This document shows positions 37,381 to 58,577 of a DNA stretch of 64,000 nt, piece by piece. Origin of the DNA: Lentisphaeria bacterium (lineage in GTDB: Bacteria; Verrucomicrobiota; Lentisphaeria; Victivallales; Victivallaceae); the NCBI GenBank assembly GCA_018265615.1, contig JABLYX010000019.1:13165-77164 (forward strand), read 5' to 3'. The notes beneath the pieces were generated by a model. It saw only the letters and a list, made by a program, of their open reading frames with translations, did no database searches and was not told the DNA's origin. The number at the start of each line of letters is the position of its first letter. Position 1 is the stretch's first letter. The position numbers were made by a program, and so were the translations under genes.

Positions 37381-37445
37381 GCATCCTCCCCTGTCATCTC
37401 CGCACCCCCGGCAACCCTCCGTAACCCGGCAACGGAAAATGCGGA

Positions 37446-40668: not shown

Positions 40669-40682
40669 AACTGTTCCCCATA

Positions 40683-40709
40683 CGCCCGGCGCAATCCGGG
40701 CGTTTTTTC
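40683..40709 (+). terminator. Rho-independent terminator after the flotillin gene
   Basis: cgcccgg-cgcaat-ccgggcg followed by TTTTTTC. Confidence 0.65.
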
Positions 40710-40732
40710 TTTCAGCCTGAGGAGAGAACCGT

Positions 40733-41542
40733 ATGAGAACCCGCATGATTTCCGCTTTTTTCGCTGCCGCGCTTCTCGGAGGCGGCTGCAGCACCGTTCC
40801 GTCGGCGCCGGAGGGAGTAATCCCATTCACAGAAATGACGGTCAGCCCCGGAGTTCAGGCTCCGGACACCCGGCTTCAGGCGGCGGCGGCTTCCGGTGAC
40901 GCGGATGCCGCATTCCGCTACGGCCTGCGGCTGCTTTTTTCCGGCGACAGCGGCCGGCCGGAGCTCCTGCCGGAATTTCCGGGGGGGGCGCCGTACGGAC
41001 TGGATTCTGCCAACCGGAGCTATCTGTGGATCGCAAAAGCCGCCGGACTCGGCAACCCCGCGGCCAAATACTGCATGAGCGTTTTCCTGCTGCAGAACGG
41101 AGAACGGCCCGGGGAGGCGATCCGGCTGCTGCAGGAAGCGGCGGAAGCCGGGGAACCCCATGCCCGGAACAGCCTGGGCGCCTGTCATTATTTCGGATAC
41201 GGTGTCGAACCCGATGAAACCAGAGCCGTGATGCTTTTCGCCTCGGCGGCGGAACAGGGACATCCGGCGGCGCTGTATAATCTCGGCGTCTGCCTGTTGA
41301 ACGGCCGCGGCGTGCGGCCGGATCCGGAAGCCGCGGCCGGACTGTTCCGGAAAGCCGCTTTCCGCGGAGTGAAACCCGCCCGGACAAACCTGGCGTGGTG
41401 TTACCGGAACGGAGTCGGTGTCGAAGCTTCCGCCGACAAGGCGAAATTCTGGGAGGAAACCGAACTTCCGGGACCGGACGGCACGGAGGAAAGGTTTCCG
41501 GAACCGGAGGGGCGGCTTGACATTCCGGGCAAACAGCAGTAA
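40733..41542 (+). CDS. Sel1-repeat (SLR/TPR-like) lipoprotein
   Basis: Lipoprotein signal (LLGGGCS) plus ~5 Sel1-like repeats (AxxxYxLGxCYxxGxGVxxDxxxAxxWFxKAAEQG pattern). Confidence 0.7.
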   Translation: MRTRMISAFFAAALLGGGCSTVPSAPEGVIPFTEMTVSPGVQAPDTRLQAAAASGDADAAFRYGLRLLFSGDSGRPELLPEFPGGAPYGLDSANRSYLWIAKAAGLGNPAAKYCMSVFLLQNGERPGEAIRLLQEAAEAGEPHARNSLGACHYFGYGVEPDETRAVMLFASAAEQGHPAALYNLGVCLLNGRGVRPDPEAAAGLFRKAAFRGVKPARTNLAWCYRNGVGVEASADKAKFWEETELPGPDGTEERFPEPEGRLDIPGKQQ

Positions 41543-41572
41543 ATTATTCTGTTCAAGTCTGGAGAAAAACAA

Positions 41573-43411
41573 ATGATGATGCGATTCCTGTTCATTGCCG
41601 CCTTATCCGCCGCCGCGCTGTTCCTCGCGGCGGGAGAGCTCAAAATCACTGTGCTGTCGGATATCCACGTCTCGCCGGGAAACGGGAACGACAAGCTCAT
41701 GCCGCAGTTGATCGACGAAATCAACGCGAATGATTCCGATCTCGTCGTCGTGACCGGCGATCTCACGAACCGCGGCGCGGACGCCGAGCTCAAACACATT
41801 CACAACGTGCTCTCCGGAATCAGAAAACCGGTTTACGCCATCACCGGCAACCACGAGACGAACTGGTCCGAGAGCGCGGGGCAGACTTTCGCAAAGCTGT
41901 GGGGCAGCGAAAACTTCGCCTTCAGGCACGACGGCGTCGTATTGATCGGATTCTCGACCGGCCCCTACCTGAAAATGGGAGACGGCTATGTGCGCAGCGA
42001 AGACGTCGCTTTCCTGAAGGAGTCCCTCAAGCGCCTCGCCGGAGCGGGGGAGCCGGTGCTGATCTTCTGTCACTATCCGTTGGCCGACGAGCTCGGCAAC
42101 GGAGCCGCCATCGCAAAGATCCTGCGGAAATACAATGTCATCGCCGTCGTCTCCGGGCACACGCACCGGCAGTTCCGGCAGCGCATCTACGGGCTCGACA
42201 GCGTCGTCTGCCGCACCATCACGGACAGCCGCAAAACTCACGGCTACAACCTGCTCCGCTTCGACGGCGAAAAAACGCTTGAAGCATTCGAAAAACGCCT
42301 CGGCGGCGAAATCCTGCCGATCGAACAGCTCAAGCCGTATGAAGAGAGGCCGTTCCCGGCGGAGGCGCCACTCCCCGACCATGTGGAACTGACCCTGCTG
42401 CACGCCGACCCGGCTTCGGTTTTCACCGGGGCAGCGGTCACGGAAAACGGCATCTATTACGGAACCAGCGACGGCCGGTTCGTCGCCCTCTCCCCCGACG
42501 GGAAAAATGTCCTGTGGGAGAAGAAATTCGGCACGCCGCTCCACTCCACCCCCGCCGCCTTCGACGGTACGGTCGCAATCGGTACAACCGCCGCTCCGGA
42601 CGGCCAGGAGGGAGGCGGCGGCATCGCCCTCTTCTCGGAGCGCGCCCGAACGCTGCTGAACTGGCTCGCGACGCCGGCCCCGGTCATCGGCGGCGGCACA
42701 ACGGCCAATGGTGAACTCTACATCGGCGGCGGAAGCAAACTCTTCTGCCGCATCGACAGAAACGGCGGCTGCGTCACAGCCTCCGGCGAGGATTTCGGCC
42801 CGATGCAGGGGCGTCCGGCCGTCGGGAACGGAGTCGTGGTGTTCGGCGCGTGGGATACGAACCTCTACGCCCTCGACGCCGAAACGCTCGAGCCGCTCTG
42901 GAAGTGGAACAACGGGAAAAAGCAGATCCTCTACTCCCCCGGCAACGTGAACCCGGTCATCGCGAACGGCCAGGCGATCATCGTCGCTCCGGACCGGTTC
43001 ATGACCGCAATCGACCTCAAAAGCGGCAAACAGGTCTGGCGCAGCAACGCATATAAATTCCGCGAATCGCTCGGCGGCAGCGAGGACGGCGGAACCGTCT
43101 ATGCGAAAACCATGGACGGCGAACTTGTCGCGGTCGAAACCGGCAGGCCGGAATTCACCCTGAAGTGGCGGTGCGACCTGAAGTTCGGCTACGACCACTC
43201 CCCCTGCCCCGTCCTCGAAGCGGACGGAGTCATTTACGCGGGCAGCCGCAACGGCGTCATCGCCGCGGTGGACGCCGTGAACGGAACGCTGCTCTGGAGG
43301 TTCCGCGGCGGCGACTCCGCCGTGAACGGCTTCACCCGGGGCCCCGACGGCAGTGTCTACGCAACACTGATCGAGGGAAAGCTCTACCGGATCAGCGGAA
43401 GAACTCCCTGA
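41573..43411 (+). CDS. Secreted calcineurin-like metallophosphoesterase fused to a PQQ-like beta-propeller repeat domain
   Basis: Signal peptide; MPP motifs (ITVLSDIHV, VVTGDLTNRG, ITGNHE, SGHTHR); C-terminal repeated YxGxxDGxLxAxDxxxGxxxW blocks typical of PQQ/BamB-like propellers. Confidence 0.7.
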   Translation: MMMRFLFIAALSAAALFLAAGELKITVLSDIHVSPGNGNDKLMPQLIDEINANDSDLVVVTGDLTNRGADAELKHIHNVLSGIRKPVYAITGNHETNWSESAGQTFAKLWGSENFAFRHDGVVLIGFSTGPYLKMGDGYVRSEDVAFLKESLKRLAGAGEPVLIFCHYPLADELGNGAAIAKILRKYNVIAVVSGHTHRQFRQRIYGLDSVVCRTITDSRKTHGYNLLRFDGEKTLEAFEKRLGGEILPIEQLKPYEERPFPAEAPLPDHVELTLLHADPASVFTGAAVTENGIYYGTSDGRFVALSPDGKNVLWEKKFGTPLHSTPAAFDGTVAIGTTAAPDGQEGGGGIALFSERARTLLNWLATPAPVIGGGTTANGELYIGGGSKLFCRIDRNGGCVTASGEDFGPMQGRPAVGNGVVVFGAWDTNLYALDAETLEPLWKWNNGKKQILYSPGNVNPVIANGQAIIVAPDRFMTAIDLKSGKQVWRSNAYKFRESLGGSEDGGTVYAKTMDGELVAVETGRPEFTLKWRCDLKFGYDHSPCPVLEADGVIYAGSRNGVIAAVDAVNGTLLWRFRGGDSAVNGFTRGPDGSVYATLIEGKLYRISGRTP

Positions 43412-44489
43412 CCGCCGCAATCACGCAATCGGCCTCCTCCGGCTTCAGATGGGGGCCGATCGGCAGGCTCAGAACCGTCTCCGCCATCCGTTCCGACAAC
43501 GGGAAATCCCCGCGTTTGAAATTCATATCCGCATACGCCTGCGACAGATGCGGGGGGATCGGGTAGTGGATCATCGTCTGGATTTCACGCTCCGTCAGGA
43601 ACCGCTGAAGCTCATCCCGCCGGTCGCACCGGACGATGAACTGATGCCAGACGCTCTCCTCCAACGCGGCGCCGGGCAGCTCAAGCTCCCCGATTCCGCG
43701 GAGGCCTTCGAAATAACGTGCGGCGATTTTCCGGCGGCGTTCGTTCCACTCATCGAGATACCTGAGCTTCACGCCGAGGAAGGCGGCCTGCATCGAATCG
43801 ATGCGCCGGTTGTACCCTTTCATCTCATTGTGGTACTTCTTCTTCGAACCGTAATTGCGCAGCATGCGCACCTTGTCCGCAATGGCGGGGTCGTCGGTCG
43901 TGACGGCCCCGGCCTCCCCGAACGCGCCGATGTTCTTGCCCGGATAGAAGCTGAGCGCCCCGGCATGCCCGAGCGCACCGGTCCGTTTGCCGCGGTAGAG
44001 CGCCCCCTGGGACTGCGCGTTGTCCTCGAGGACAAACAGCCCGTGCTTCTCCGCAATCTCCATGACGGGAGCCATATCGACCGGGACTCCGTAAAGATGG
44101 ACGACCGCAATCGCACTCGTCCGCGGCGTAATCGCCTCCTCGATCCGGGCGGGATCGATGTCGAAGGTTCCCGGAGCCGGCTCGACCGGAACCGGCACCG
44201 CGCCGACCTGAGAAACCGCCAGCCACGTGGCGATGTAGGTGTTGGCCGGAACGATCACCTCGTCCCCTTCCTTCACCCCGCCGGCCTCAAGGCCGAGGCA
44301 GAGCGCATCGAGCCCGTTCGAAACGCCGACGCAGAACTTCGTCCCGCAGTATTCCGCAAACGCCTTCTCAAACGCCTCGGTCTCCGGCCCGAGTACATAC
44401 CAGCCGGAGTTCATGAACCGGAAATATGCCTCATCCAGCTCACCCTTCAGCTCCAGATAGGGAGCCTTCATATCCAGAAATTGAATCAT
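43392..44489 (-). CDS. DegT/DnrJ/EryC1/StrS-family PLP-dependent sugar aminotransferase (FdtB/WecE-like)
   Basis: 365 aa; conserved N-terminus ([38 protein letters not shown]) and the Lys-containing [17 protein letters not shown] motif. Confidence 0.85.
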
Positions 44490-45334
44490 TTGTCTTCGCT
44501 CTTGTATTTCAAGAATTCATTGTAGTCCCGAATATAATCATCCGGCTCATAACCGCGCGAGGCCAGCACCAGCAGCACGCAGTCGGCCGAGTGCTTGTAC
44601 TGGATTCCCCAGCAGCCGGAGGGCAGATGCAAACCGCGTGTCGGCGTATCGAGCACATATTCCCCGCGTTTCCTGCCGTCATCGACAATCACATGCAGAG
44701 AGCCGTGAAGCGCAATCAGGAACTGTTCGCAAACTTTGTGCGCATGCTCGCCGCGAACCTCCGAAGAACCGACGCCATACGTGTAAAAAATCCGCTTCAC
44801 CGGAAACGGGAGCAGTTTTTCGAATTCCAGAACGCTCAGATCCCCGCGGATATCGGAAAAGCTCGGGATCGAATACAGAAGCTTCGATTCGCCGGCGGAC
44901 GCACGATCCCCCTGCCCCTGCCCTCCGGTCAATTCAGCGCCGACATACCCGACGATGCGCGCCGGATTCCCGACCACAATCGCATAAGGCGGAACATTTT
45001 TCGTGACGACCGCCCCGGCCCCGACCATCGCATGAGCGCCGATCGTCACAGGCAGGATCGTCGCATTCGCCCCGATCACAGCTCCGTTGCCGATCCGCAC
45101 AAATTTCGCGGTATCCGGATCAGCCATAAGAACGGCAGAATCCCCGATCCGAACCGAATCCTCCAGAATCGCCCCGCCCGGGATCACACACAGTGAACCG
45201 ATTTTCACATCGCTGCCGATCTCCGCCCGGGGACCGATGCAAACCCACTCGCCAAGCTGAACCCGTTCCCCGATCCTGGCTGAGTCATCAACAACAGCCG
45301 CTGTTTTCCTTAAATTCATGACGATTCCCCGCAT
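44486..45334 (-). CDS. Bifunctional protein: N-terminal hexapeptide-repeat (LbH) N-acetyl/acyltransferase fused to a C-terminal FdtA/QdtA-like dTDP-4-keto-6-deoxyhexose 3,4-ketoisomerase (cupin)
   Basis: N-terminal half is [LIV]G-x4 hexapeptide repeats ([26 protein letters not shown]...). C-terminal half has the FdtA-type RGEHAHK active-site histidines and a WxcM-like cupin. The module order is reversed relative to Xanthomonas WxcM. Confidence 0.7.
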
Positions 45335-45840
45335 CTGACAAGAAACTGTTGAAATATGGACTTTTCAAACATATCCCGAGTAAATTCGAAATAAATGAAT
45401 TTATCGTCCCGCGCAATTTCCTTCGCATAACAACGATGAAAACGAATCACCTTCCGGTTCTCCAGCATTACCTCAAAGCGGCAAATATCCAGATCCAGCT
45501 GACGGAAACCGTATTCATATCCCTGAGCAACAGACTCCTGGGCAGCCATGAGCGGCGCGCCCGGCATCAGCAGCCAGCTGCCGATGGTGAACGATCTGCG
45601 TCCGCGGTCAATATGGTAAAGGCGAATCATTCCCCATGGAGTCGCCCGGTAATCCTCGATGATGAAATAATACTCTTCGCCGGCTTCAAACCGCCGCAGA
45701 TATCCTTTCAGCCAATCCCGCTGATCTTCCACTGTGCCATTCACCGGGGACAGGAACTGATTGCGGCTGCCTTCCCGGCGGGCCTGAAAAATGAACTCCG
45801 CATCTGACAGTTCCACAGGCCGCAGCCGGATTTCCATCAT
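45316..45840 (-). CDS. GNAT-family N-acyltransferase
   Basis: ~175 aa acyl-CoA N-acyltransferase fold. Confidence 0.65.
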
Positions 45841-45876
45841 CAATTCCCCATGTACACTCGATTTCATTGCAACCCC

Positions 45877-46653
45877 TCAACGCCTCAGCCGGTAACCGCC
45901 GTCGACACACAGGTCGGTTCCGGTAATCCATCCCGCGGCATCCGACAACAGGAAAACGGCCGGCCCGGCGACATCGTCCGGCTCTCCCATCCCCAGCGGA
46001 TGGTCCTCTTCTATTCGCCGCCGTCCCTCCAAGGTCAGCCTGTCCAGATCGTCCCGGGTGATTCCGGTATTGGCAACATAACCGGGCGAAACCGTATTGA
46101 CGCGGATTTTCCGTCCGGCAAGTTCCGCGGCCAACGCACGGGCGCCGCTCAGCAGAGCTCCCTTTGTGGCCGAATAACTGCATTTTCCCGCTGTGCCGAC
46201 GCCGGCCGTCACCGAACTGATGAAAACAAAAGAGCCGCCGGACGGGATCGAATATTTTTTCTTCGCAACAATACCGGCCAAACCGAATCCGGCCGCAACG
46301 TTAAGCTGGTAAGCCGCCAGGAAATCAGTCAATGCTGTCACCTTCAGGGGACAGGAGAAAGCTGTTCCCGCCGCATGCACCAACCCATCGATTTTTCCCA
46401 ATTCAGCAACGGCCTCGGCGATGGCCGGCTCCATTTCCGCAAAATCATGGAGTGCAGTAAAATCAATGCTGATCATATGCGAACGGACACCGGCCGGAAA
46501 CGCCGCGACGCACTCTTCCAGCCGCTCACAGCACCGCCCCATCACAATCACATCGGCGCCGGCATCGGCGCATCTCCGCGCAATGGCACGACCAATTCCG
46601 GAAGAGGCGCCGGTCACGATGATTTTCTTCCCGGTCAAAGTAAAATCAATCAA
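45877..46653 (-). CDS. SDR-family oxidoreductase (FabG-like 3-oxoacyl-ACP reductase)
   Basis: TGASSGIGRAIA Rossmann motif; catalytic YSATK. Confidence 0.85.
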   Translation of the reverse strand: MIDFTLTGKKIIVTGASSGIGRAIARRCADAGADVIVMGRCCERLEECVAAFPAGVRSHMISIDFTALHDFAEMEPAIAEAVAELGKIDGLVHAAGTAFSCPLKVTALTDFLAAYQLNVAAGFGLAGIVAKKKYSIPSGGSFVFISSVTAGVGTAGKCSYSATKGALLSGARALAAELAGRKIRVNTVSPGYVANTGITRDDLDRLTLEGRRRIEEDHPLGMGEPDDVAGPAVFLLSDAAGWITGTDLCVDGGYRLRR

Positions 46654-46882
46654 AATTCTCCCTCCCGATCACATCCATCAGGGAGCCGACAGTATCAACT
46701 TCACTCAACTGCGCACCGGAAAGCTTCCGAGAAAAATTCCGGTCTGCAAACGCGACGATCGACATGATCGCAAGGGAATCGAACTCTTCGAAATCCTTCA
46801 GATCCGTCGTTTCCGACAACGTCACATCATCATCCAGTTCAAGAAGTTCCACAAGTTTTTCAAAAAATTCATTCTTTTTCAT
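46646..46882 (-). CDS. Acyl carrier protein
   Basis: 78 aa; phosphopantetheine-attachment DSL motif (EFDSLAIMSIV). Confidence 0.8.
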   Translation of the reverse strand: MKKNEFFEKLVELLELDDDVTLSETTDLKDFEEFDSLAIMSIVAFADRNFSRKLSGAQLSEVDTVGSLMDVIGRENFD

Positions 46883-46896
46883 AACAACTCTCCATG

Positions 46897-47868
46897 TTAT
46901 TTCTGTCTCTGCCGGCAGGTCAAAACGGTTGCTCCATATGAATAACCGACGCCAAAACCGGCAATCAAGATACGCTCTCCACTCCGAAACACATTTTCCG
47001 CCTGAAGCTTGTGCAGCAGAATCGGAATGCTCGACGATACCGTATTACCCGTTTCTGCAAGGTCGATATGAAAACGGGAATCTTCCACCCCCAACTTTTC
47101 CTGCAGATACCGCAACATATACTTGTTCGCCTGATGAAAGACATAATGATCGATGTCGTCAGGAACAAGCCTGTTCCGCTCCAACGTCTTTTCAACCAGC
47201 GCAGGAACCGTCTCAATTGTAAAGCTGAAGATCTCAGGACCATTCATATAAAGGAAAGGCGAACCGGATTCCCCATCCGCCCGGGCTCTTCCGCCTCCTC
47301 CTCTGACAATCAGATTCTCCGCCCCCCGGCCATCGGTTCCCAGGACGAATTCACCAACATCAAATAACGAATCCGCCTCCAGGATAACCGCTGCGGCCGC
47401 ATCTCCGAAAATGGAGCGGTTCCCCTTATCGGACGGATCAAGATAGCGGGAATAGGTTTCCGCCGTAATCAGCAGGATATGCTCCGCGACGCCTCCGGCA
47501 AGCAGGCCTTTGGCGACAGCAAGCCCGTAAACAAAACCGGAGCAACCCAGGTTGAAGTCAAAAGCCCCGACCCCGGTTGAAAGCCCGAGACGACTCTGAA
47601 GCAGCGACGAGGTCCCCGGCAGCGGATAATCGGGGCTCTGCGTACACAGCAGCAGAAAATCGATCTTCGAGCGTTCGAAGCCATCCAGAACTTTTTCTCC
47701 GGCCCTGACCGCCATATCGAGAACAGTCTCGCCCGGAGCAGCCAGATGCCGGTTCCGGATGCCGACCTTCTTCTCGATTTTCTTCGCGGAAAAATCGGAA
47801 AACTCCTCTTCCAGCATCCCGTTGGACAGCAGGCCTTCCGGCAAATAATAGGCAGATTTCCCAATCAT
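46897..47868 (-). CDS. 3-oxoacyl-ACP synthase III-like (FabH/KAS III-family) enzyme
   Basis: Active-site Cys region (NLGCSGFVYGLAVA), His (HYVFHQANKYM) and Asn (GNTVSSSIPILL) triad positions conserved. Confidence 0.85.
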   Translation of the reverse strand: MIGKSAYYLPEGLLSNGMLEEEFSDFSAKKIEKKVGIRNRHLAAPGETVLDMAVRAGEKVLDGFERSKIDFLLLCTQSPDYPLPGTSSLLQSRLGLSTGVGAFDFNLGCSGFVYGLAVAKGLLAGGVAEHILLITAETYSRYLDPSDKGNRSIFGDAAAAVILEADSLFDVGEFVLGTDGRGAENLIVRGGGGRARADGESGSPFLYMNGPEIFSFTIETVPALVEKTLERNRLVPDDIDHYVFHQANKYMLRYLQEKLGVEDSRFHIDLAETGNTVSSSIPILLHKLQAENVFRSGERILIAGFGVGYSYGATVLTCRQRQK

Positions 47869-48296
47869 ACTTCACCAGCCTTTCGATGTCTTGTCAAAAT
47901 ACGGTCAATCAGGATAAAGTTCCACAGCATCGTAACCGGAATGACCGCACAGCTCAGCAATGTCCGGTTTCCCCCGGGCAGGCCGGCGATCAGAATCGCC
48001 AGTATACCGGTTCCAAGCAGCATTCCACTCAGGTACGATACGAAATAACCCGCCAGCTTCCGCAATGACATTGCGGACTGAAACACAAAACGGGAATTCA
48101 GCCAGTACGACAGCAGCAGTGTCAGGAGATAGGATGTGCAATAAGAGAGATATGCATTCCATCCGCACACGTCATTCAGGAGAAACAGCAGCACAATGGA
48201 TACCAGCGTCACAGATGCACCGACCAGAGAGAAGCCGCTGAACTTCAGAATCAGCACACGCCAGTAAGATGGTATCTGCACTTTATTCATTTTCAT
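47865..48296 (-). CDS. GtrA-family polyprenyl-phosphate-sugar flippase
   Basis: 143 aa, 4 TM helices; GtrA-like N-terminus (KFSGFSLVGASVTLVSIVLLFLL). Confidence 0.8.
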   Translation of the reverse strand: MKMNKVQIPSYWRVLILKFSGFSLVGASVTLVSIVLLFLLNDVCGWNAYLSYCTSYLLTLLLSYWLNSRFVFQSAMSLRKLAGYFVSYLSGMLLGTGILAILIAGLPGGNRTLLSCAVIPVTMLWNFILIDRILTRHRKAGEV

Positions 48297-49281
48297 CTTT
48301 TCGCTTGATGATATAGCCGGGACGCCCCTTCACCTCTTCATAGATTCTCCAGATATACTCGGCAATCACGCCGAGCGACAGAAGGATCAGGCCGCTGAAA
48401 AAGGAGATGAAGAGAATAATGGAGGTCCAGCCAGGGACGGTAAGCCCCCAGAACCGGCTGTCTCCCCAGATCGCGATATACAGATAAAAAATAATGATGA
48501 TCAGGGAAAAGCCGGAAAACAGCAGCCCCATGCGGTTGATCATCATAATCGGGAAGGAGGAGGACGAAAAAAACGTATCCTTGGCCAATCGCAATTTCTT
48601 GCGGAACGACCAGCGGGAACTCTTCCTGTTGAGCCCCAACGGGCGCGAATACTGATAATAATACGGTTCGAATCCCAACCGCAGCACTTCGGAAATCGTC
48701 GCTGTGTTGATCGGGTGGATTTTCCGGTTGATGATATCAATCACCTCACGGTCAATAAAAAAGGTATCGGCTCCTCCGACCGGATACCTGACCTCCGAGC
48801 ACCAGTTCATCACAGTATAGAAGCATTCTGAAAAAATGCGGCTGAAGAGAGGGTCTTCCCGGTTGATGCGGTGCGGAATAATGATCTTATGCCCGTTCTC
48901 CCACAGGCGATACATGTCAACGATCGTCTCGTAAGGCTGCTGCTCATCATCCGGAATCGGCATGGCGCAGGCGCCGCGCACGACGGAAAGCCCGGCGAAG
49001 ATCGAGTAGTGGCTCGTGTAATTCCTGCTCAACTGGTAGGCGCGGACATTCGGAAACTTCTTTTCCAGTTCCAGCGCCATGCGGTATGATTCATCTTTCG
49101 AGCCGTCGTCCATCACGATGAACTCAAACGGAATCTTCTCCCGTTCCAGAAGTTCCTTCAACTTCAAATACGCTTTCCGAATCCGTTCTTTGCTGTAATA
49201 GGACAACAATATCACAGAAAGCGTCTTATCATCTTTCTTGCCGCCAACTGCTATATTCAACATGGTTTGACCTTTCGTCAA
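48283..49281 (-). CDS. GT2-family polyprenyl-phosphate glycosyltransferase (GtrB/CsbB/DPM1-like)
   Basis: GT-A motifs (LSVILLSYYS...DDGSKD) and two C-terminal TM helices, typical of GtrB-type UndP-sugar synthases. Confidence 0.85.
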   Translation of the reverse strand: MTKGQTMLNIAVGGKKDDKTLSVILLSYYSKERIRKAYLKLKELLEREKIPFEFIVMDDGSKDESYRMALELEKKFPNVRAYQLSRNYTSHYSIFAGLSVVRGACAMPIPDDEQQPYETIVDMYRLWENGHKIIIPHRINREDPLFSRIFSECFYTVMNWCSEVRYPVGGADTFFIDREVIDIINRKIHPINTATISEVLRLGFEPYYYQYSRPLGLNRKSSRWSFRKKLRLAKDTFFSSSSFPIMMINRMGLLFSGFSLIIIIFYLYIAIWGDSRFWGLTVPGWTSIILFISFFSGLILLSLGVIAEYIWRIYEEVKGRPGYIIKRKDENE

Positions 49282-49347
49282 TCATACTTCCGACTCAGAG
49301 CCATGCCCCGGATAAAAGGGCGTTCCCGTTTCTTTTCAACTGATTTA

Positions 49348-52300
49348 CTATTTTTCCATTATTTTGCAGAGTTCATAATTCTTTCTTCGCATGAACACAA
49401 AGCAGAGTCCACCTGTAATCAAAATCCCAAAAACCGATAAAATGTTTCCAACATGAGCTCCCGGAGCAGACCAGCGAACAGTAACCTCATGCTCGCCGGG
49501 AGGAACGGGGATTCCCAACAGACCATTGTTGATTCCGTAAACCTTTTCCGCCCTGCCGGAAACAGTCGCCTGCCAACCATCCTGGAAAGTTATGGGAATG
49601 CAAAGCATTCCGAACCTCCCCGAACGGTTATCCACTTTCCCCCGCCATGTCGAATGTGCATAACTGATGTTTGTCACGGGAGAAGATTTAAATGCGGCTG
49701 CTGCAGCATCAATTACCTTGTCAAAATCTTTTTGACGAATCAGAGAAAGTGACATCAACCTTGAGTTGTGATTAATACTTCTATTATTTACCATAAAACA
49801 AATCTCGGAAACAGTTTCCGACGGTAACGCCATTCGGTAAACCCTGCGTCCGGGCTCAGTCCGGAACACTCGCATATGCCCATCACAAATTGTTAAAAAT
49901 TCACAGGGGTATCTTCCGTCGTATTCAAGCTCAAGCATATGGAACCCCGATTGCGGATCTGCAATTGATACAGTTCCGGAATAAGACAATTTTCCTGAAA
50001 CATTTTGAGGTAAGGAAACTCTATTCTTTGTCGTTATGGGTGAACCGTTTCTGATGAGAGGAATACTTTCCTGAGGTAATGCTTCCTGTTTAGGGAATGA
50101 TTCAGGGAATAAGCTCGCAACAGCCGCTGCGTCAGAGCCGTCAACAAAATTAAAATGAGAAAGCCGCACACGAGAAAGCTCTTCATTCGTAAAACACTTA
50201 AGTTGATCGATGCTGATCCGATGCGTGTACAAATAGCCGAAGGGTAACTCCGTTTGCCGTGTTGATTTCCAAACCCCATTCAGGTTTTCCGGTTCCCCGT
50301 AACCAAATAATTTTGCTCCGGAATCAATGGAAATATGTGTGGAAATTCCCAGCAAAAGCTCTGTCGCGGGGTCAAGAAGAAATGAAAATTTGTTAGAATT
50401 GAAAACATCAACGGCTTCCGGCGCATATTTTTTTATCGTCGCGGGAAAAAGTGAATTATATGTGCTGACCCCCGAATAATTGTAAATCAACGGCCAGCCG
50501 TAGTGTTGAATCTTATCCCTCGAAGGCAAAAACAAGATCCTGCCGTCCGCACTCGATTCATCTACCACAGGTTTGACTTTGTGATAGATATCCCCTTGAA
50601 AAGCTCGAAAATTAAAAAAAGTCTTCTGCAAAGGGTGTCGTTGATTAATGGTCGGATTGTGCACTAAAAAAAGTTCGATTGCAACAACGCCCATCAATAA
50701 AAACGGTAAAAAACGGCAAATTCGACTTGCGGCCAGCCAGGAGAAAAATAAAAGATATATTCCAGACAAAATGGTAACATAAAGCAATACAGAAGAGCAT
50801 ACAGAAAAATATGCATATAATATAACCAAAACAAAAAACAAAAACATTAATGCAAATACATTAACTTGCCGATTTCTTTTCGGTTCCTTTATGTAATCTT
50901 CCAGAAAATTTACAATAATGACAATAGAAGAAAAAACAAAAATAAATGTCCAGCGATAAGCAAAGACATGTCGAAAGAAAAGCACAGCCAGTGGCAGAAC
51001 CATCATACCGGCAATGAACCAATATCGCCATTGGGGCCGAATGAAAAGATAATAGGCTGCGGCCCAAAAAACCAAAAGGCTGCTTGCCAAAACGGTCGCT
51101 TCATAATAATTATGTTGCACAAAATGAGATAAGACGCCAAAGTAATTGTTCGATATAAGCCGCCCCAGATAAATCATTACATCTTCAAAAGATGTGACTG
51201 CAAGAAAATTAGCTGCAGCCTTGGCGCCAACATCACTACGTCCCGATTTGCCGAAAAGCACCAGCCACGGTACGCTGATCCAGGCACTGATCATAAATCC
51301 AAGCATTCCGTTCAGAAACAATTGCAACTCATCCGTCAACCATTTTTTCAAGCGAAATCCGCGGAGTAACGAACGCGCCAGAAGATAAAATGCGGAAAAT
51401 ATTCCAATCATACTGAAGAAGTAAACAGAAAACATGCTCAATAACGCATAATTGAGCACACAGAAGAAAAAACTTTTCCTTTTATCAGATAATAGGAGTT
51501 CCAGCAAATACATGTTGATTGTAAAGAAAACCATCGCAGTCAAAAACTGGTAATGCTGCCCCCATAAAACATTGTAACTGGAAAAAGTCCACAGCATCAC
51601 CCCAATCCAAATAAAATAAGGATTACGGGCAATACGTTTAAAATAAAGCCAGGAGAAACATGCAATAACCAGATATTTCACCAATGCAATCCAAATCATA
51701 GCCTCCATAAACCGGTCAAGAGGCACAAAGAACAGAAGCAGTGAAAAGGGGTCCAGCAACTGCATCGTCAAAGTTACTGCTGAAACCCCTAAGCCCATTT
51801 GCCACAGCATCATTTGAAATGAGCCGCTTTTTAAATTCTCAATCAGGAATCGATAATATGGCAGATAACTTCGGATTGTATCGGATCCGATATCCTGAAA
51901 GCAGTAATAATACGGTCCCCAAATGTAATTCCGATAAAGCAGAAAGAAAATAATCAAGACGGATAGAATGATTCCATGAAAGGGATGGCGGGAAAAATAG
52001 TCCTCACTCTTTTTCAAAGCCCATTTCCCGGCAGAAAATATCTCTTCCAACCATCGTCCGACACAGATCGACAGCAGTAAAATCACAAACTCCGCCAGAG
52101 AGACCAGCAAAAGATTGATCCACAATATTGATTCGCACGGATACTGCTGAAAAAATTTCGAATTTGAAACCAGATAACAATCATTTCCGGAGGAACTCCA
52201 TTCACTTCCACGAGCAGTTTGCTTCCAATCCGCAACATGATTCCGACTGACAAAAACATCGGAAATTTTTTCACCGGAAATAAAATATGAAAAAATGAAA

Positions 52301-52665
52301 TTACGCTGGATGCGAATCGCACGAAGAGAAAATTGTTCTCCACTCCGGCTTCCGAAGTCAAACCGGAGCCGACGATATTCAACACTGGCGGGCAAACGGA
52401 AATGAAGAGCAGCAAATCTTCCGGGCGAATTGTACTCTTTCGTTTCACTCGCCTTTTGAGAATAAGTATCGGGAGAAAAAAAGGGATCGAGATAAAAAAC
52501 CTGGACAGCAGTGTCTCTCGTGGAAGACATCTCTACAAACACATCTGTTTTCAGGATGAACTGCAAAAGAATCGCATTTAAAACAACGAAGCAGAGAATG
52601 CCGATGCCAACACCCTTCGCATGCAATAGCCGCGATACAATACTCGGAGTAAACGCTTTTGCCAT
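49348..52665 (-). CDS. YfhO-family GT-C-type membrane glycosyltransferase (1105 aa; extra ~180-aa N-terminal domain; C-terminal TM anchor)
   Basis: ~13 TM helices, a large extracytoplasmic C-terminal domain, and a final TM helix (VGNILSVFGILITGGLCFVFMRRK), which matches YfhO topology. The coding DNA is conspicuously AT-rich (~35-40% GC). Confidence 0.7.
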   Translation of the reverse strand: MAKAFTPSIVSRLLHAKGVGIGILCFVVLNAILLQFILKTDVFVEMSSTRDTAVQVFYLDPFFSPDTYSQKASETKEYNSPGRFAALHFRLPASVEYRRLRFDFGSRSGEQFSLRAIRIQRNFIFSYFISGEKISDVFVSRNHVADWKQTARGSEWSSSGNDCYLVSNSKFFQQYPCESILWINLLLVSLAEFVILLLSICVGRWLEEIFSAGKWALKKSEDYFSRHPFHGIILSVLIIFFLLYRNYIWGPYYYCFQDIGSDTIRSYLPYYRFLIENLKSGSFQMMLWQMGLGVSAVTLTMQLLDPFSLLLFFVPLDRFMEAMIWIALVKYLVIACFSWLYFKRIARNPYFIWIGVMLWTFSSYNVLWGQHYQFLTAMVFFTINMYLLELLLSDKRKSFFFCVLNYALLSMFSVYFFSMIGIFSAFYLLARSLLRGFRLKKWLTDELQLFLNGMLGFMISAWISVPWLVLFGKSGRSDVGAKAAANFLAVTSFEDVMIYLGRLISNNYFGVLSHFVQHNYYEATVLASSLLVFWAAAYYLFIRPQWRYWFIAGMMVLPLAVLFFRHVFAYRWTFIFVFSSIVIIVNFLEDYIKEPKRNRQVNVFALMFLFFVLVILYAYFSVCSSVLLYVTILSGIYLLFFSWLAASRICRFLPFLLMGVVAIELFLVHNPTINQRHPLQKTFFNFRAFQGDIYHKVKPVVDESSADGRILFLPSRDKIQHYGWPLIYNYSGVSTYNSLFPATIKKYAPEAVDVFNSNKFSFLLDPATELLLGISTHISIDSGAKLFGYGEPENLNGVWKSTRQTELPFGYLYTHRISIDQLKCFTNEELSRVRLSHFNFVDGSDAAAVASLFPESFPKQEALPQESIPLIRNGSPITTKNRVSLPQNVSGKLSYSGTVSIADPQSGFHMLELEYDGRYPCEFLTICDGHMRVFRTEPGRRVYRMALPSETVSEICFMVNNRSINHNSRLMSLSLIRQKDFDKVIDAAAAAFKSSPVTNISYAHSTWRGKVDNRSGRFGMLCIPITFQDGWQATVSGRAEKVYGINNGLLGIPVPPGEHEVTVRWSAPGAHVGNILSVFGILITGGLCFVFMRRKNYELCKIMEK

Positions 52666-53019
52666 AATTATTCGAACCAGTCATTCACTCCGGCTGTTCA
52701 AGTTCTTTCAATTGCTCTATTGACGACGAGATCCGACATCACACTTTCCGCAGAATGTAATATACTTCATAAAATAAGTTTTACAACTTCAGCAATCCAT
52801 TTTGTCCGTTAAACGGCAAAGAATGCCGATGAGTTTCCCGAATCAAATATACCGTCAGCGCTGAAGTCGGTGCGGAAAGCGCAACAGCAGCAATTCCATC
52901 AACCCAAGCCGCCAGACCGGAAGCGGAAAAATTGTGGAAGAAGCATTGCTTTTTTATAATCCTCTAATTATGGATTGTCATCCATATTGATTTCCCTGCA
53001 AAAGCCACTATATTGAATC

Positions 53020-53850
53020 ATGGGACAAATGATAAAACTATTGTTTTGGATTGCCATGTTCGCCGCGCTTTTTCCGGCAGCTGCCGAGAGGGTGGTTTCT
53101 CTCAGCCCCAATCTGACCGAAACCATCGTCCGTCTCGGCGCGGAAGAACAGCTGGCCGGGCGCTCGGAATTCTGCGATTATCCGGAGAGCGTGAAGAAGG
53201 TCCCGGTTGCCGGGCGGTTCGGCGTTCCCGCGCTCGAGCCGCTGCTCGCGGTGCGGCCGACGCTGGTCGTTTCGGAAACGCTGCGCGACCGTAATGCGGC
53301 GGAACGGCTCCGGGAGCTCGGCATCCGCTGCGAGGAGTTTCCCGCCCGGAGTTTCGAAGACTATTTCACAAACCTCGAACGGCTCGGAAAACTGCTGGAA
53401 AAAGAAGAGGAATCCCGCCGGGAGATCGAACACGGGCGCGCGCTCATCGCGCGATGGGAGGCGGCAAACAGCGCCGTCCCGGCGGCAAAGCGGCCGGCGG
53501 TGCTCGTCGTCATCGGAACCTCCCCGGTCATCACGGCGGGGAAGCAGAGCTTCCTCACCCGGCTGCTGGAACTCGCCGGGGGCCGCAACCCCGCCGCCGG
53601 GGTTGACCGGAACTATTTCAGCTGTTCGTTCGAACAGATCCTGCTCTGGCGGCCGGAGGTGATCCTCGCGCCCGGCCTGCCGGCGGAACAGTTCCGCGAA
53701 CTCGAAAAAACTCCGGGGTGGTCGTCACTTCCAGCGGTGAAAAACAAGCGTGTCATCACCGGCTTCGACGCGGATCTGCTCTACCGGCTCGGACCGCGCA
53801 GCTTCGACGGAGTCGAAAAGCTGCGCACGCTTCTCAGACCTCAAGAGTGA
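53020..53850 (+). CDS. Periplasmic substrate-binding protein of the TroA/BtuF class (cobalamin/Fe-siderophore-type ABC transporter SBP); no cognate permease or ATPase nearby
   Basis: Signal peptide; class III SBP pattern (ERVVSLSPNLTE, RPTLVV). Confidence 0.7.
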   Translation: MGQMIKLLFWIAMFAALFPAAAERVVSLSPNLTETIVRLGAEEQLAGRSEFCDYPESVKKVPVAGRFGVPALEPLLAVRPTLVVSETLRDRNAAERLRELGIRCEEFPARSFEDYFTNLERLGKLLEKEEESRREIEHGRALIARWEAANSAVPAAKRPAVLVVIGTSPVITAGKQSFLTRLLELAGGRNPAAGVDRNYFSCSFEQILLWRPEVILAPGLPAEQFRELEKTPGWSSLPAVKNKRVITGFDADLLYRLGPRSFDGVEKLRTLLRPQE

Positions 53851-54670
53851 AGCCGTCGCAGGCGACTTCGATTCCGTGCGGGGTAAAGAATTTCACAAGG
53901 TCGTCGTGGTTCGCGCCGCAATTGTGCGTAAAGTGATTCACGACAGCCGGAGCATCCGGCGCAAGGCAGCCCATCTCGACGAGCCTCTTCCGGAATGCGA
54001 CGCTGGTGTTCGCCCCCATGTGCCCGTCGCGCCAGTCCGCCCCCTTCAGCCCGCCCGTGCTTTCGATCACGGCCGCATCGAGCTTCACGCCCTCGAGCAG
54101 CTTCCAGGACTCCTCGGAGAGCCAGCCGGTATCGTTCGCGACGAAGATGCTCTTCCCGCCGCGCGTGAACACATAGACCAGGGGATCGGAATGCCGGTCA
54201 TGGTTCGCACGGAGCGGCAGCAGCTCGAGATCGCCGTCCTTCAGCCGCTCGCCGGAACGCGCATGGACCGGCCGGATGAAGAGCTCGGCAAGGTCGCTGA
54301 CCGCTCCGCCTTTCGCCGCATGTTCAATGATCGTGCTGAAAATCCGGCGGTCGCCGATCACGGTCAGCGGCTTCGTCACCTGCGAAAAGTACGGGGAGCG
54401 CCGCCAGTAGACATCCGCCGGATTCAGGTGGTCGCTGTGCGAATGGGTGAAGACGATCCGGTCGATCGCCGTGAGGTCAATCCCGAATGCGATGCTCTGC
54501 CAGTAAGCGTCCGGACCGAAATCGATCAGCGTGTCGCCGTCGAGCAGATAGCTGCAGCGCCGCCGGATCTCCTTTCCGCCGAGCGTCTTCGCTTTCCTGC
54601 AAACCTCGCACTCACACCACAGCGCCGGAATCCCCTCCGCCGCCGCCGTCCCCAGAAACGTCAGTTTCAT
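53834..54670 (-). CDS. MBL-fold metallo-hydrolase (PhnP-like)
   Basis: HSHSDH metal-binding motif; beta-lactamase-fold segments. Confidence 0.8.
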   Translation of the reverse strand: MKLTFLGTAAAEGIPALWCECEVCRKAKTLGGKEIRRRCSYLLDGDTLIDFGPDAYWQSIAFGIDLTAIDRIVFTHSHSDHLNPADVYWRRSPYFSQVTKPLTVIGDRRIFSTIIEHAAKGGAVSDLAELFIRPVHARSGERLKDGDLELLPLRANHDRHSDPLVYVFTRGGKSIFVANDTGWLSEESWKLLEGVKLDAAVIESTGGLKGADWRDGHMGANTSVAFRKRLVEMGCLAPDAPAVVNHFTHNCGANHDDLVKFFTPHGIEVACDGFTLEV

Positions 54671-54808
54671 CGAACCATGCTCCCGATTTCAGTTGGTTGT
54701 TCCTGCAATGTAGCCCAACTCCACATCGAAATCAAGCCCGGAACTCACGTTTTTCTCATTTGCATTCCGGCGGCGGCGACCGTATATTACCTGAACAGGA
54801 GAAAATGA

Positions 54809-56488
54809 ATGAAACCAAGTGAAGAACCGAAATGCATTTTCGTCTCCGGGCACCGGAACCCGGACATCGACAGCATCGCCGGGGCTTATGCGCTCGCCGA
54901 ACTGCGCCGCCGTCAGAGCAGCATCCCGGTCACCGCGCTCTGCCCCGGCATCCTTCCGGACCGTGCGGCATATCTCTTCAAACGCTTCCGGCAGAAGCCG
55001 CCCGCGAGCCGCAACGACATCTATCTCCGGATCCGCGACATCCTCGAACCCTGTACCGTCGTCGAAGCCGGAACCACGCTGTTCGAAGCCGTCAACCTGC
55101 TGCGCGACTCCGGCATGCTGCGGCTGCCCGTCGTCGGGCATGACGGCAGGTTCCTCGGCATGCTGAGCTCGCTCTCGCTGCTCTCGCAGCTGCTGAACAT
55201 CGGCAGCTCCGACGGCAGCGACCTCGCCGGGCGGCGCATCCACAGCTCGATCGATCTGATCCGCGGCGTGCTTGAAGCGGAGGTGCTGACCGGCGCCGAC
55301 ACCGCGGACGAACAGGATTTCGACGTCTATGTCGCCGCAATGGGGCTCGACAGCTTCGAGGAGCACATTCCTGCGGGCAACCGCAACCTCGCGCTCATCG
55401 TCGGCGACCGCCCCGAGATCCACCTGCGCGCGCTGCACCGCGAGCTGCGGCTGCTGATCGTGACCGGCAACCGTCCGGTCGACCCGCTGATCCTCAAGGA
55501 GGCCGCCGCGCACCGGGTTTCGATCCTGAAAACCGGCCTCGACTCGGCCACCGTCATCCGCCGGCTGAAGTTCAGCACACCGGTCGAATTCACGCAGTTC
55601 CCGGACAACGACCTCACGCTCTCGCCGGACGACCGGCTGCGCGACCTGCGAAGCCGCATCCTCGCGTCTCCCGCCGACATCCTGCCGGTGCTCGACGCGC
55701 AGGGGCGCCTGGCCGGCGTCGTATTGAAGAAACAGCTCTCGGAGCAGCCGCCGTACCGCATGATTCTCGTCGACCACAACGAGCCGGAGCAGAGCCTCCC
55801 CGGCGTCGAGGAGATTCCGGTCGTCGAAGTCGTCGATCACCACCGCATCGGAATGATGCCGACCGCCGCGCCGATCCGCTTCACCGCGGACACCGTCGGC
55901 AGCAGCTGCACACTGATCGCGATGATGTACCGCAGCTGCGGCGAAAGCCTCACGCCGGAGCTGGCCGGGCTGCTGCTCGGGGGGATCGTCTCGGATACGC
56001 TGCTCCTCAGGTCCCCGACCACCGCGCCGCTCGACCGGCGCATGTGCGAGTGGCTCGAAAAGCTCTCCGGCGTCACCGGCGAAGAGCTCATGACCGAGCT
56101 CATGCAGATCGACTCCCCGCTCGCGGTCAAACCGGCCGGGGAGGTAATCGGCGGCGATTGCAAGACCTACACCGACGGCGACTACAAATTCGCGCTGTCG
56201 CAGGTGGAGGAGACGAATCTCGAGCTGCTGCACCAGCGCCGCGACGAACTCGCGGAAGAGATCCGCCGCCGCATCGAAGAGGAGAAGCTCGACTTCTTCG
56301 GGCTGCTCGTGACCGACGCGGTCCGCGAGAATTCCGAGCTGCTCGCGCTCGGCAGCGGCGACATCGTGCGCAGCCTGCCCTATGCGCCGGCCGGACCGGA
56401 CCTCTTCGCGCTGCCCGGAGTGCTCTCGCGCAAAAAGCAGCTGCTGCCGCAGATGCTCGCGATCACGGCGGCGCTCCGCCAGGAGTGA
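54809..56488 (+). CDS. CBS-domain-containing family II (Mn-dependent, DHH-DHHA2) inorganic pyrophosphatase
   Basis: DHH motif (FVSGHRNPDIDSIAGA), CBS pair and DRTGG insert, DHHA2 C-terminal domain (VDHHRIG, GGIVSDTLLL). Confidence 0.85.
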   Translation: MKPSEEPKCIFVSGHRNPDIDSIAGAYALAELRRRQSSIPVTALCPGILPDRAAYLFKRFRQKPPASRNDIYLRIRDILEPCTVVEAGTTLFEAVNLLRDSGMLRLPVVGHDGRFLGMLSSLSLLSQLLNIGSSDGSDLAGRRIHSSIDLIRGVLEAEVLTGADTADEQDFDVYVAAMGLDSFEEHIPAGNRNLALIVGDRPEIHLRALHRELRLLIVTGNRPVDPLILKEAAAHRVSILKTGLDSATVIRRLKFSTPVEFTQFPDNDLTLSPDDRLRDLRSRILASPADILPVLDAQGRLAGVVLKKQLSEQPPYRMILVDHNEPEQSLPGVEEIPVVEVVDHHRIGMMPTAAPIRFTADTVGSSCTLIAMMYRSCGESLTPELAGLLLGGIVSDTLLLRSPTTAPLDRRMCEWLEKLSGVTGEELMTELMQIDSPLAVKPAGEVIGGDCKTYTDGDYKFALSQVEETNLELLHQRRDELAEEIRRRIEEEKLDFFGLLVTDAVRENSELLALGSGDIVRSLPYAPAGPDLFALPGVLSRKKQLLPQMLAITAALRQE

Positions 56489-58043: not shown

Positions 58044-58577
58044 TCACTTCCACGCCTCGGAGAACTCGCGTTCACTGAACGCCTCGGCCAGCCCCCCGAT
58101 CTGGGAGAGGCGCAGCACCTCGTCCGGCTCCATGCCGAGGCTGCGGCCGATCTTCGCGTCGTTCCAGTTGCGCCGCTTCAGGTCGAGGATGATTTTACTC
58201 ATCTCCATGATCTGGTGTTTACCGCGGGCGCGGTTGTGCCGGACGGTTGCGGCCATCCGTTCGTTCCGGTCGTCCTCGCCGCGGTTCAGCACGACGCAGG
58301 GCAGATGGGTGAGCCCGAGCTTCCGGCCGACCTTGCTGCGGTGGAAGCCGTCCACGACTTCGAAGCGGCCGTCCTCACGCAGCCAGACCACGATCGGCTG
58401 CGTGAAGCCGTCCTCGCGGATCGAGAGCTCCAGCAGTTCCATTTCAGGAGGCGCCACGACATTCGGATTGTAGTCATTGGCCTCGATCTGCCCGACCGGG
58501 ATCCAGTAGATCCGGATGACCGGGTGCTCGTACGCCCACTCCGGAACCTTTTCGTAGCAACTCAGATCAACTGCCAT
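58044..58577 (-). CDS. ParB/sulfiredoxin-like nuclease-domain protein (IbrB / YbdM-like)
   Basis: 177 aa; ParB N-terminal-domain pattern (...DGFHR...RNRARGKHQI). It overlaps the upstream PAPS-reductase-like gene by 16 nt. Confidence 0.65.
   Translation of the reverse strand: MAVDLSCYEKVPEWAYEHPVIRIYWIPVGQIEANDYNPNVVAPPEMELLELSIREDGFTQPIVVWLREDGRFEVVDGFHRSKVGRKLGLTHLPCVVLNRGEDDRNERMAATVRHNRARGKHQIMEMSKIILDLKRRNWNDAKIGRSLGMEPDEVLRLSQIGGLAEAFSEREFSEAWK

Follow-up and report, generated by a model that had tools for sequence, protein, structure and literature searches.

How did a sharply AT-rich stretch come to lie within an otherwise high-GC bacterial contig, and what do its genes do? The question is raised by a 64,000-nt stretch of contig JABLYX010000019.1 (hereafter the window), in which an original prediction, made from the sequence alone, had placed a low-GC island at 47865–53019. 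Three genes of this island, which encode a GtrA-type flippase, a family 2 glycosyltransferase (GT2), and a large YfhO-like glycosyltransferase of the GT-C type, were read as a surface-glycan modification cassette that looked horizontally acquired, possibly from a low-GC donor. The window proteins correspond by exact sequence match to MBS1370051–70 of a Lentisphaeria metagenome-assembled genome (MAG) close to Victivallis, in agreement with the expected host from the Planctomycetes-Verrucomicrobia-Chlamydiae (PVC) group. These three genes make up the first third, in the direction of transcription, of an operon of nine genes that also encodes donor-sugar synthesis. This operon probably represents a complete three-component system for extracytoplasmic glycosylation together with the synthesis of its donor, in which a resident GT-C is combined with an exchangeable module and has a persistently low GC content. 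The genes, in transcription order and preceded by their presumed promoter region, are as follows.

52666..53019, no strand assigned: divergent intergenic region, presumed promoter region, AT-rich (GC 0.412), between the operon and the PBP2/btuF-like gene
49348..52665, minus strand: YfhO-family GT-C glycosyltransferase, 1105 aa (PF09586, 1.3e-37, 130 bits against a cut-off of 28.5)
48283..49281, minus strand: polyprenyl-phosphate GT2 of the GtrB/ArnC/PgfS type with a C-terminal transmembrane (TM) hairpin, 332 aa (PF00535)
47865..48296, minus strand: GtrA-family small membrane protein, putative flippase for the lipid-linked sugar, 143 aa (PF04138, 1.8e-15)
46897..47868, minus strand: KASIII (FabH-like) condensing enzyme (PF08545/PF08541; NCBIfam PRK09352, 270 bits against a cut-off of 249)
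46646..46882, minus strand: acyl carrier protein (ACP), 78 aa, with a DSL phosphopantetheine-site motif (open reading frame, ORF; weak NCBIfam ACP match, 2e-4)
45877..46653, minus strand: FabG-like ketoreductase of the short-chain dehydrogenase/reductase (SDR) family (PF13561, 9e-47, and a ketoreductase, KR, domain; TGxxxGxG and YxxxK motifs)
45316..45867, minus strand: FdhC-like GNAT N-acyltransferase (PF13302; PDB 5kta)
44486..45334, minus strand: left-handed beta-helix (LbH) acyltransferase fused to an FdtA-type 3,4-ketoisomerase cupin, WxcM/FdtD-like (PF05523, 1e-47, and Hexapep)
43392..44489, minus strand: DegT-family pyridoxal phosphate-dependent aminotransferase of the C-3 type (FdtB/QdtB/DesV-like), the last gene of the operon (PF01041, 1e-117)

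All nine genes lie on the minus strand and run from 52665 down to 43392 in the order YfhO, GT2, GtrA, KASIII, ACP, SDR, GNAT, LbH-FdtA, and DegT. Stop and start codons overlap or nearly abut at six of the gene junctions; the GtrA gene, for example, overlaps both the GT2 stop and the KASIII start. The 66-nt gap between YfhO and GT2 has no terminator-like site, and the promoter and terminator scans gave weak consensus matches only. A public contig that matches the window has its GT2 start six codons later (about 49263) and its GNAT start at about 45837. The identities proposed for the trio were all recovered by Pfam (PF09586, PF00535, and PF04138), with the 1105-aa protein well above the cut-off of its family, and the three parts of an extracytoplasmic set (polyprenyl-phosphate GT2, GtrA flippase, and GT-C) are present. 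As a unit, however, the trio was drawn too narrowly, since the next six genes of the operon, which specify the sugar, had been missed. To the right, the operon is flanked by genes for PBP2, MBL, DHH-family phosphatase, and TrmO proteins; to the left lie genes for a metallophosphoesterase/PQQ-propeller protein (MPE-PQQ) and for Sel1 and Band7 proteins. The 3' end of the DegT gene overlaps the convergent MPE-PQQ gene by 20 nt (43392–43411).

The drop in base composition is real. The GC content of 47865–53019 is 0.441, compared with 0.629 in the remainder of the window, and 441 segments of equal length outside the island range from 0.598 to about 0.65 (standard deviation 0.0098), with none below 0.598. 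By gene, GtrA has a GC content of 0.495, as proposed, and GT2 has 0.496, which is low but above the 45% or so that had been claimed. For YfhO, the predicted 35–40% compares with 0.418 over the entire gene and with 400-nt minima of 0.33–0.36 at 50.6–51.2 kb; the AT-rich 31-mer quoted in the original prediction maps to 50696–50726. The GC content at third codon positions (GC3), used to disentangle base composition from amino-acid content, is strongly atypical, with 0.42 for YfhO, 0.59 for GtrA, and 0.68 for GT2 against 0.70–0.88 in 13 flanking genes. On the right, the return is as abrupt as had been described, with a step of about 20 points at 53.0 kb and a GC content of 0.633 in the PBP2/btuF-like gene from 53020 on. 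The 354-nt intergenic region before this gene (52666–53019) has only a short patch, GCAATGCTT.TT, in common with the equivalent V. lenta region. No Rfam family was matched anywhere in the window, and so no cobalamin (B12) riboswitch precedes the btuF-like gene. The left edge, in contrast, had been misplaced at 47865. There is no sharp fall at that point; GC content declines stepwise from about 44.2–44.5 kb, and the values of the downstream genes are 0.621 for DegT, 0.574 for LbH-FdtA, 0.509 for GNAT, 0.586 for SDR, 0.447 for ACP, and 0.535 for KASIII. On this side, only DegT (GC3 0.80) is back at background. The compositional island is about 8.5–9.6 kb long and matches the nine-gene operon, not the trio.

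An abrupt 20-point step at 53.0 kb in a MAG could also reflect an error of assembly or binning, by which a low-GC fragment of another organism was fused to a high-GC contig. However, a contig from an independent Logan assembly is 100% identical to the window over 40539–56068 and spans both junctions, which excludes a chimera. The left part was recovered at 99.7–99.9% identity over 34269–48120 in contigs from two other samples, and the same arrangement is found in the cultured isolate V. lenta and in contig L098. We therefore regard the probability of an artefact as negligible.

Whether the low GC content marks a recent arrival can be judged from the same site in relatives. Three Victivallis-like species were compared, namely that of the window, V. 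lenta (L002; cultured isolate), and a third species (L003/L098). In all three, YfhO lies directly beside PBP2-MBL-DHH-TrmO. The YfhO of V. lenta (WP_154419236.1) is 58% identical to that of the window, and the L098 homolog is 64% identical, while the flanking genes share 73–86% identity between the window and L098 and 67–89% between the window and V. lenta. Synonymous divergence (dS; NG86), crudely estimated, is 0.5–1.6 for the flanks and 1.3–2.3 for YfhO. These values suggest that YfhO is a long-term resident of the site, a somewhat fast-evolving ortholog with a divergence that broadly tracks that of the flanks. The GC3 of YfhO is 0.42 in the window, 0.39 in L003/L098, and 0.57 in V. lenta, compared with about 0.80 in the neighboring genes. 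Because synonymous turnover of this extent should erase a foreign composition, a rough relaxation argument points to a low GC content that has been maintained, or repeatedly re-imported, rather than one left by recent transfer.

The genes downstream of YfhO differ among the three species. In V. lenta, the cassette consists of an ArnC/PgfS-like GT2, a WecD-like acetyltransferase, and WecE (616 bits, above its cut-off), a content that indicates Fuc4NAc as the likely sugar. In L098/L003, the cassette contains a GT2, GtrA, a full-length LbH/FdtA, a 670-aa membrane protein, and a DegT protein with 91% identity to that of the window, and this set would produce Fuc3NAc. The eight window genes from GT2 to DegT are collinear in the gut-metagenome contigs L093–95, with protein identities of 71–85% (71% for GtrA in L093). 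In these contigs, where the flanks have a GC content of 0.63–0.66, the module adjoins a GT-C of the GtrII type (PF14264) instead of YfhO. The same module also occurs within a large rml-containing polysaccharide locus in L096. The operon thus appears to be a composite of a resident GT-C and an exchangeable eight-gene donor module, and the joint between the two is in the 66–84-nt gap at 49282–49347. With a resident GT-C and a swappable module, the locus behaves like a serotype-type variable glycan locus. On the other side, the C-terminal FFR of the aminotransferase is the same in V. lenta, whose enzyme is WecE and just 30% identical; it follows that the variable region is bounded on the left by a recombination point within the aminotransferase gene, at its 3' end.

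Large polytopic membrane proteins are also encoded beside GT2/FdtA/DegT genes at L003 5092–7104 and L098 10686–12698 (670 aa), L085 6884–9004 (706 aa), and L086 9946–11823 (625 aa). These 625–706-aa proteins had no significant match in Pfam or NCBIfam and no significant BLASTP similarity to one another or to YfhO, and the gene for the 670-aa protein of L003/L098 has a GC content of 0.375. These proteins could be GT-C-like partners, so far undescribed, with which the Fuc3NAc donor module works.

The wider distribution of YfhO bears on the claim that a low-GC donor, probably a Firmicute, recently supplied GtrA, GT2, and YfhO together as one cassette. An exhaustive HMMER search found 3009 YfhO homologs at E<1e-3, of which a handful, all in the same clade, exceed 45% identity and the rest reach at most 32%; most lack the N-terminal 225 or so residues. 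In a scan of GTDB species genomes, evaluated for the best 80 loci (the source genome and V. lenta were not among the returned matches), the best match is a Lentisphaeria MAG (L005) with 27% identity. It is followed by about 70 loci of Bacillota, mainly Lachnospiraceae, Paenibacillus, and Bacillus, and by a few from other phyla. L005 was considered as a sister of the Victivallis YfhO clade and rejected, since it is closer to the Bacillota sequences than to this clade. The predominance of Bacillota and the strongly atypical GC3 agree with such an import, as do the YfhO neighborhoods in Paenibacillus, Bacillus, and Lysinibacillus (and likewise in Anaerolineaceae), which include FdtA/LbH, DegT, and GT2 genes. 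However, when most of the protein is aligned, the nearest Bacillota homologs share no more than 28% identity (short segments reach 35%), and the affinity of L005 to Bacillota means that no donor can be named. Moreover, orthologous YfhO genes occupy one site in three species with a divergence that tracks the flanks, and GT2 and GtrA move with the Fdt/acyl genes rather than with YfhO. The nearest named relatives of the GT2 are from Victivallis/Lentisphaeria (70–78% identity), followed by Bacteroidota (65–69%) and not Firmicutes. Marks of mobility are lacking as well: the locus has no integrase or insertion sequence (IS) elements, no tRNA was found in the window, and a repeat search for flanking repeats gave short chance matches only. 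The acquisition of the trio as proposed is not upheld by these results, and we consider it very unlikely. Given that the family is rich in Bacillota, an ancient transfer of YfhO into the lineage is possible and cannot be dated.

A phage origin was also considered and rejected, since the YfhO alignment, when used to search viral contigs, retrieved no relative. In comparison with serotype-conversion cassettes of the phage GtrABC type, the window has neither GtrC, tRNA, viral relatives, nor flanking repeats. A second candidate was a recent transfer of GT2 from Bacteroidota to Lentisphaeria, as suggested by the 65–69% identity to Parabacteroides and Chryseobacterium homologs; this was rejected because the neighboring DegT and FdtA are only 38–46% identical. 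For the same reason, the high identity of GT2 between phyla is best explained by constraint on a slow-evolving protein. GT2 homologs at 65–78% identity always adjoin FdtA/LbH/DegT genes and usually also a gene for a large membrane protein. As an observation in its own right, the WxcL-like GT2 (48283–49281; homologs P0184–P0303) is unusually conserved between phyla.

The assignment of the large protein to YfhO is based on both sequence and predicted structure. The PF09586 match covers residues 232–823 and a second stretch. The AlphaFold2 (AF2) model has a mean predicted local distance difference test score (pLDDT) of 74, with residues 230–1095 well predicted, and its closest folds in PDB, as found by Foldseek, are AftD, EmbC, AftA, and PglB. 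According to this model, the protein has a GT-C fold with a membrane core at about 230–700; after the core come a C-terminal periplasmic domain rich in beta structure and then a last TM helix. Neither PF14264 nor any other GtrC-type family was matched by the large protein in Pfam, and the proposed assignment to a YfhO-type rather than GtrC-type enzyme is therefore supported. Sequence search found no solved YfhO structure. Just after the third TM helix, D258, G260, and D262 are invariant across 22 YfhO homologs, and this loop should be periplasmic, judging from the helix pattern and the charge distribution (positive-inside). The first 225 or so residues form an N-terminal extension that consists of a TM helix, a beta-rich periplasmic segment of about 130 residues, and another TM helix. 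This extension, modeled with low confidence (pLDDT about 45–55), is retained in the V. lenta and L098 orthologs, is absent or unalignable in most other YfhO homologs, and may recognize the acceptor. Together with an identity of at most 32% outside its own small clade, it distinguishes the window protein from known YfhO proteins.

Genes for amino-sugar synthesis are common near YfhO. Among the 80 GTDB loci (the L006–L084 set, mainly Lachnospiraceae), a DegT gene is located within 6 kb of YfhO in 51 and within 1.5 kb in 31, and FdtA/LbH is present too in 10, which suggests that the nearest YfhO subfamily generally handles amino sugars. In the window, the identity of the sugar can be deduced from the genes downstream of GtrA. 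The best PDB matches of the aminotransferase are DesV (2oga, 5e-124) and QdtB (3frk, 9e-115), with the C-4 enzymes ArnB and perosamine synthase far lower. The LbH-FdtA protein matches a WxcM-like/FdtD structure (4mzu, 8e-63), and FdtA (2pa7, 1e-28) fits better than QdtA (1e-17). For the GNAT, the sole strong PDB match is FdhC (5kta, 7.5e-28 over residues 15–173), a Fuc3N 3-hydroxybutanoyl transferase responsible for the formation of Fuc3N(R3Hb) in E. coli O103 and Hafnia (PMC4869667). The Cys/His/Asn triad motifs of KASIII are readable, this protein is 85% identical in L093, and the position of the ACP gene is conserved in L090, L093, and L096. The presence of dedicated KASIII, ACP, and ketoreductase genes beside an FdhC-like GNAT suggests a 3-hydroxyacyl group; in the simplest case, a single condensation followed by a single reduction would give 3-hydroxybutanoyl. 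The product is predicted to be N-acylated dTDP-Fuc3N, probably with a 3-hydroxybutanoyl group.

The LbH part of the LbH-FdtA protein is mosaic in structure: its first 75 or so residues (about 45110–45334) are unlike those of relatives, whereas the protein is nearly identical to the L003 homolog from about residue 76 on. The LbH part is 26 residues shorter than in relatives (gaps of 18 and 8 residues), and the FTNDxFPRS segment found in L003, L085, and 4mzu is missing. This N-terminus may be a scar of the recombination that inserted the KASIII-ACP-SDR-GNAT module, and the LbH acetyltransferase may be inactive.

From these assignments, the following pathway may be proposed. RmlA/RmlB, encoded outside the window, would supply dTDP-4-keto-6-deoxyglucose, which would be isomerized by the FdtA domain and aminated at C-3 by the DegT/FdtB-like enzyme to yield dTDP-Fuc3N. 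N-acylation would likely be performed by the FdhC-like GNAT with a 3-hydroxyacyl group, in the simplest case 3-hydroxybutanoyl, made by the KASIII, ACP, and ketoreductase of the operon. Alternatively, or additionally, the remodeled LbH domain may acetylate the amine of Fuc3N. The GtrB/ArnC-type GT2 would then move the sugar onto undecaprenyl phosphate (Und-P), GtrA would flip the lipid-linked sugar to the periplasmic face, and the YfhO-type GT-C would pass it to a surface acceptor, for which lipopolysaccharide (LPS)/O-antigen, capsule/exopolysaccharide (EPS), and protein are candidates. In support of the role of GT2, the protein aligns along its whole length (residues 21–325) with the GtrB structure of sll0501 (PDB 5ekp) at 4.7e-39, with ArnC at 2e-20; in NCBIfam, the top matches are PgfS (3e-39) and ArnC (1e-21).

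Several points weigh against this interpretation of the locus. All pathway steps are deduced from homology, and the NCBIfam scores of GT2 are far below the equivalog cut-offs. The choice of Fuc3N over Qui3N, that is, of the galacto configuration, depends solely on relative E-values. A tblastn search with L088 queries found no RmlA/RmlB in the window, and these enzymes may be encoded elsewhere in the genome. Two acyltransferases (the LbH domain and the GNAT) compete for one amine, which makes the N-acyl group uncertain, and FdhC uses acyl-CoA whereas the operon encodes an ACP, such that the true acyl donor may differ. The dS estimates are affected by strong codon bias, and YfhO would also look resident if its alleles had been replaced repeatedly by way of recombination within the flanks, which are conserved. 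Finally, the neighbors on either side have no link to envelope synthesis, with no O-antigen, capsule, or core genes beside the operon, and so give no clue to the acceptor.

The lack of adjoining polysaccharide assembly genes could be explained if the acceptor were protein, as in a Pgf-like O-glycosylation of periplasmic or surface proteins. PgfS is the top NCBIfam match of GT2, and the C-terminus of YfhO weakly matches PgfM1/PgfM2, the YfhO-like enzymes of Streptococcus mutans protein glycosylation. However, the PgfS/PgfM1/PgfM2 scores are far under the equivalog cut-offs, homologous donor modules are found in O-antigen/EPS-type loci with Wzx, Wzm/Wzt, rml, and many glycosyltransferases, and the precedent in Xanthomonas (see below) concerns side branches of an O-antigen. 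A protein acceptor is thus rather unlikely. Another hypothesis, which we find quite improbable, is an Arn-like modification of lipid A or core, in which an amino sugar is placed on LPS phosphates, lowers the surface charge, and confers resistance to cationic peptides. The gene logic of DegT, GT2, and GT-C mirrors that of ArnB, ArnC, and ArnT, and ArnC is matched by the GT2 of the window (1e-21 and 2e-20, as above) and by that of V. lenta (1.7e-56). In contrast to the Arn system, the operon encodes N-acyltransferases and no ArnD-type deacylase, so the transferred sugar should be neutral; moreover, its GT-C is of the YfhO type and not ArnT/PMT_2, and the predicted donor is a dTDP-6-deoxyhexose and not UDP-Ara4N.

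The preferred interpretation, decoration of a surface acceptor with an N-acylated Fuc3N, can be placed among known systems. In three-component systems, a membrane-anchored GT2 makes an undecaprenyl-linked (C55-P) sugar, a GtrA-type flippase moves it across the membrane, and a polytopic GT-C acts outside (PMC8035078). CsbB/GtcA/YfhO of Bacillus, Staphylococcus, and Listeria, GtrA/GtrB/GtrC of Shigella and Salmonella phages, and ArnC/ArnEF/ArnT have the same three parts as the window, and the YfhO partner of CsbB belongs to the same Pfam family as the window GT-C. The characterized YfhO members, which glycosylate teichoic acids with CsbB, are all from Bacillota (PMC8035078). In contrast, the host of the window is a diderm PVC bacterium that should have no teichoic acids, and another acceptor is therefore expected. 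The donor is predicted to be a dTDP-derived N-acyl 3-amino-3,6-dideoxyhexose instead of UDP-GlcNAc or UDP-Glc, and the genes for its synthesis are within the same operon, unlike in these three-component systems. A gene combination from another PVC lineage is known from Pontiella (Kiritimatiellae), in which an EPS cluster contains vioA, yfhO, a GT2 gene, and gtrA (PMC7356697).

The closest functional precedent is the wxcK-L-M-N-O region of Xanthomonas, whose predicted role is the synthesis and transfer of the Fuc3NAc residues that branch from the O-antigen (PMC12573098). In the LPS3 wxcK–wxcO genes of X. campestris/hortorum (rhamnan O-antigen), the gene classes resemble those of the window: wxcK encodes a C-3 aminotransferase, wxcL a GT2, and wxcM a bifunctional acetyltransferase/isomerase, and there are two more membrane proteins, one of them small and of the translocase type. 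The window differs by the addition of the KASIII/ACP/KR/FdhC acyl module and the use of a YfhO-family GT-C. The isomerase, C-3 aminotransferase, and FdhC-like GNAT are shared with the FdtA/FdtB/FdhC route to dTDP-Fuc3N(R3Hb) in E. coli O103, Salmonella O55, Hafnia alvei PCM1211, and Acinetobacter (PMC4869667). In those organisms, cytoplasmic glycosyltransferases build the sugar into the repeat unit, whereas in the window it would apparently pass through Und-P and a GT-C. In addition, the GNAT of the window is accompanied by a dedicated KASIII, ACP, and KR.

A comparison can also be made at the level of the chromosomal site. Low-GC O-antigen and capsule loci occupy fixed chromosomal sites in Enterobacteria and Pseudomonas. 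Like the window locus, they lie at a fixed site between housekeeping genes, vary in content, and have their lowest GC content in polytopic membrane genes. In contrast to them, the site in the window holds the decoration system alone, without the assembly of a whole repeat unit. Furthermore, the membrane enzyme YfhO is the conserved anchor of the Victivallis site, and the soluble sugar genes vary.

Two other features of the window were observed. At 58044–59773 on the minus strand, an overlapping pair of genes with a native GC content (0.59–0.63) encodes a ParB_N-domain protein (177 aa) and a PAPS_reduct/DUF3440 protein (403 aa), which we take to resemble the IbrB/IbrA arrangement. At 35950–38118, also on the minus strand, three tandem ORFs (204–248 aa) start with Cys-rich CxxC motifs resembling zinc ribbons, followed by hydrophobic segments, and a 151-aa ORF overlaps the third. 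The three had no match in a Pfam scan that covered the 204–248-aa ORFs. These ORFs look like a small paralogous family, and some of them may be spurious in high-GC sequence.

To our knowledge, Victivallis and its relatives are common and barely studied Lentisphaerota of the human gut, with surface glycans that have not been characterized. The findings leave current concepts unchanged; the mechanism is a known one, here met in another phylum and with another donor sugar. Their interest is modest and lies in the pairing of a YfhO GT-C with an acyl-Fuc3N module, in the swapping of cassettes at a fixed site, and in the lasting low GC content of a resident gene. One eight-gene donor cassette is found with GT-Cs of YfhO and GtrII, hence of no fewer than two unrelated families. 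It is predicted that the N-acyl Fuc3N/Fuc4N decoration differs by species, which would probably affect recognition by phages and by the immune system. The locus also gives a warning about GC content: a deficit of 20 points belongs here to a gene of long residence, and base composition by itself is therefore a poor guide to recent transfer.

A more far-reaching and tentative possibility, somewhat doubtful at present, is that the PBP2/MPE-PQQ site is the serotype locus of gut Victivallaceae. In that case, a vertically inherited YfhO with its clade-specific N-terminal periplasmic domain, of a subfamily specialized in amino sugars, would accept Und-P-linked Fuc3N-hydroxybutanoyl, Fuc3NAc, or Fuc4NAc according to the downstream cassette, and its AT-richness would be actively maintained. 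If true, a YfhO gene with a GC content of about 40% in genomes of 63% GC, across dS>1, would imply that AT-richness is kept, for example, for silencing or slow translation of this large membrane enzyme, and does not stem from a foreign source.

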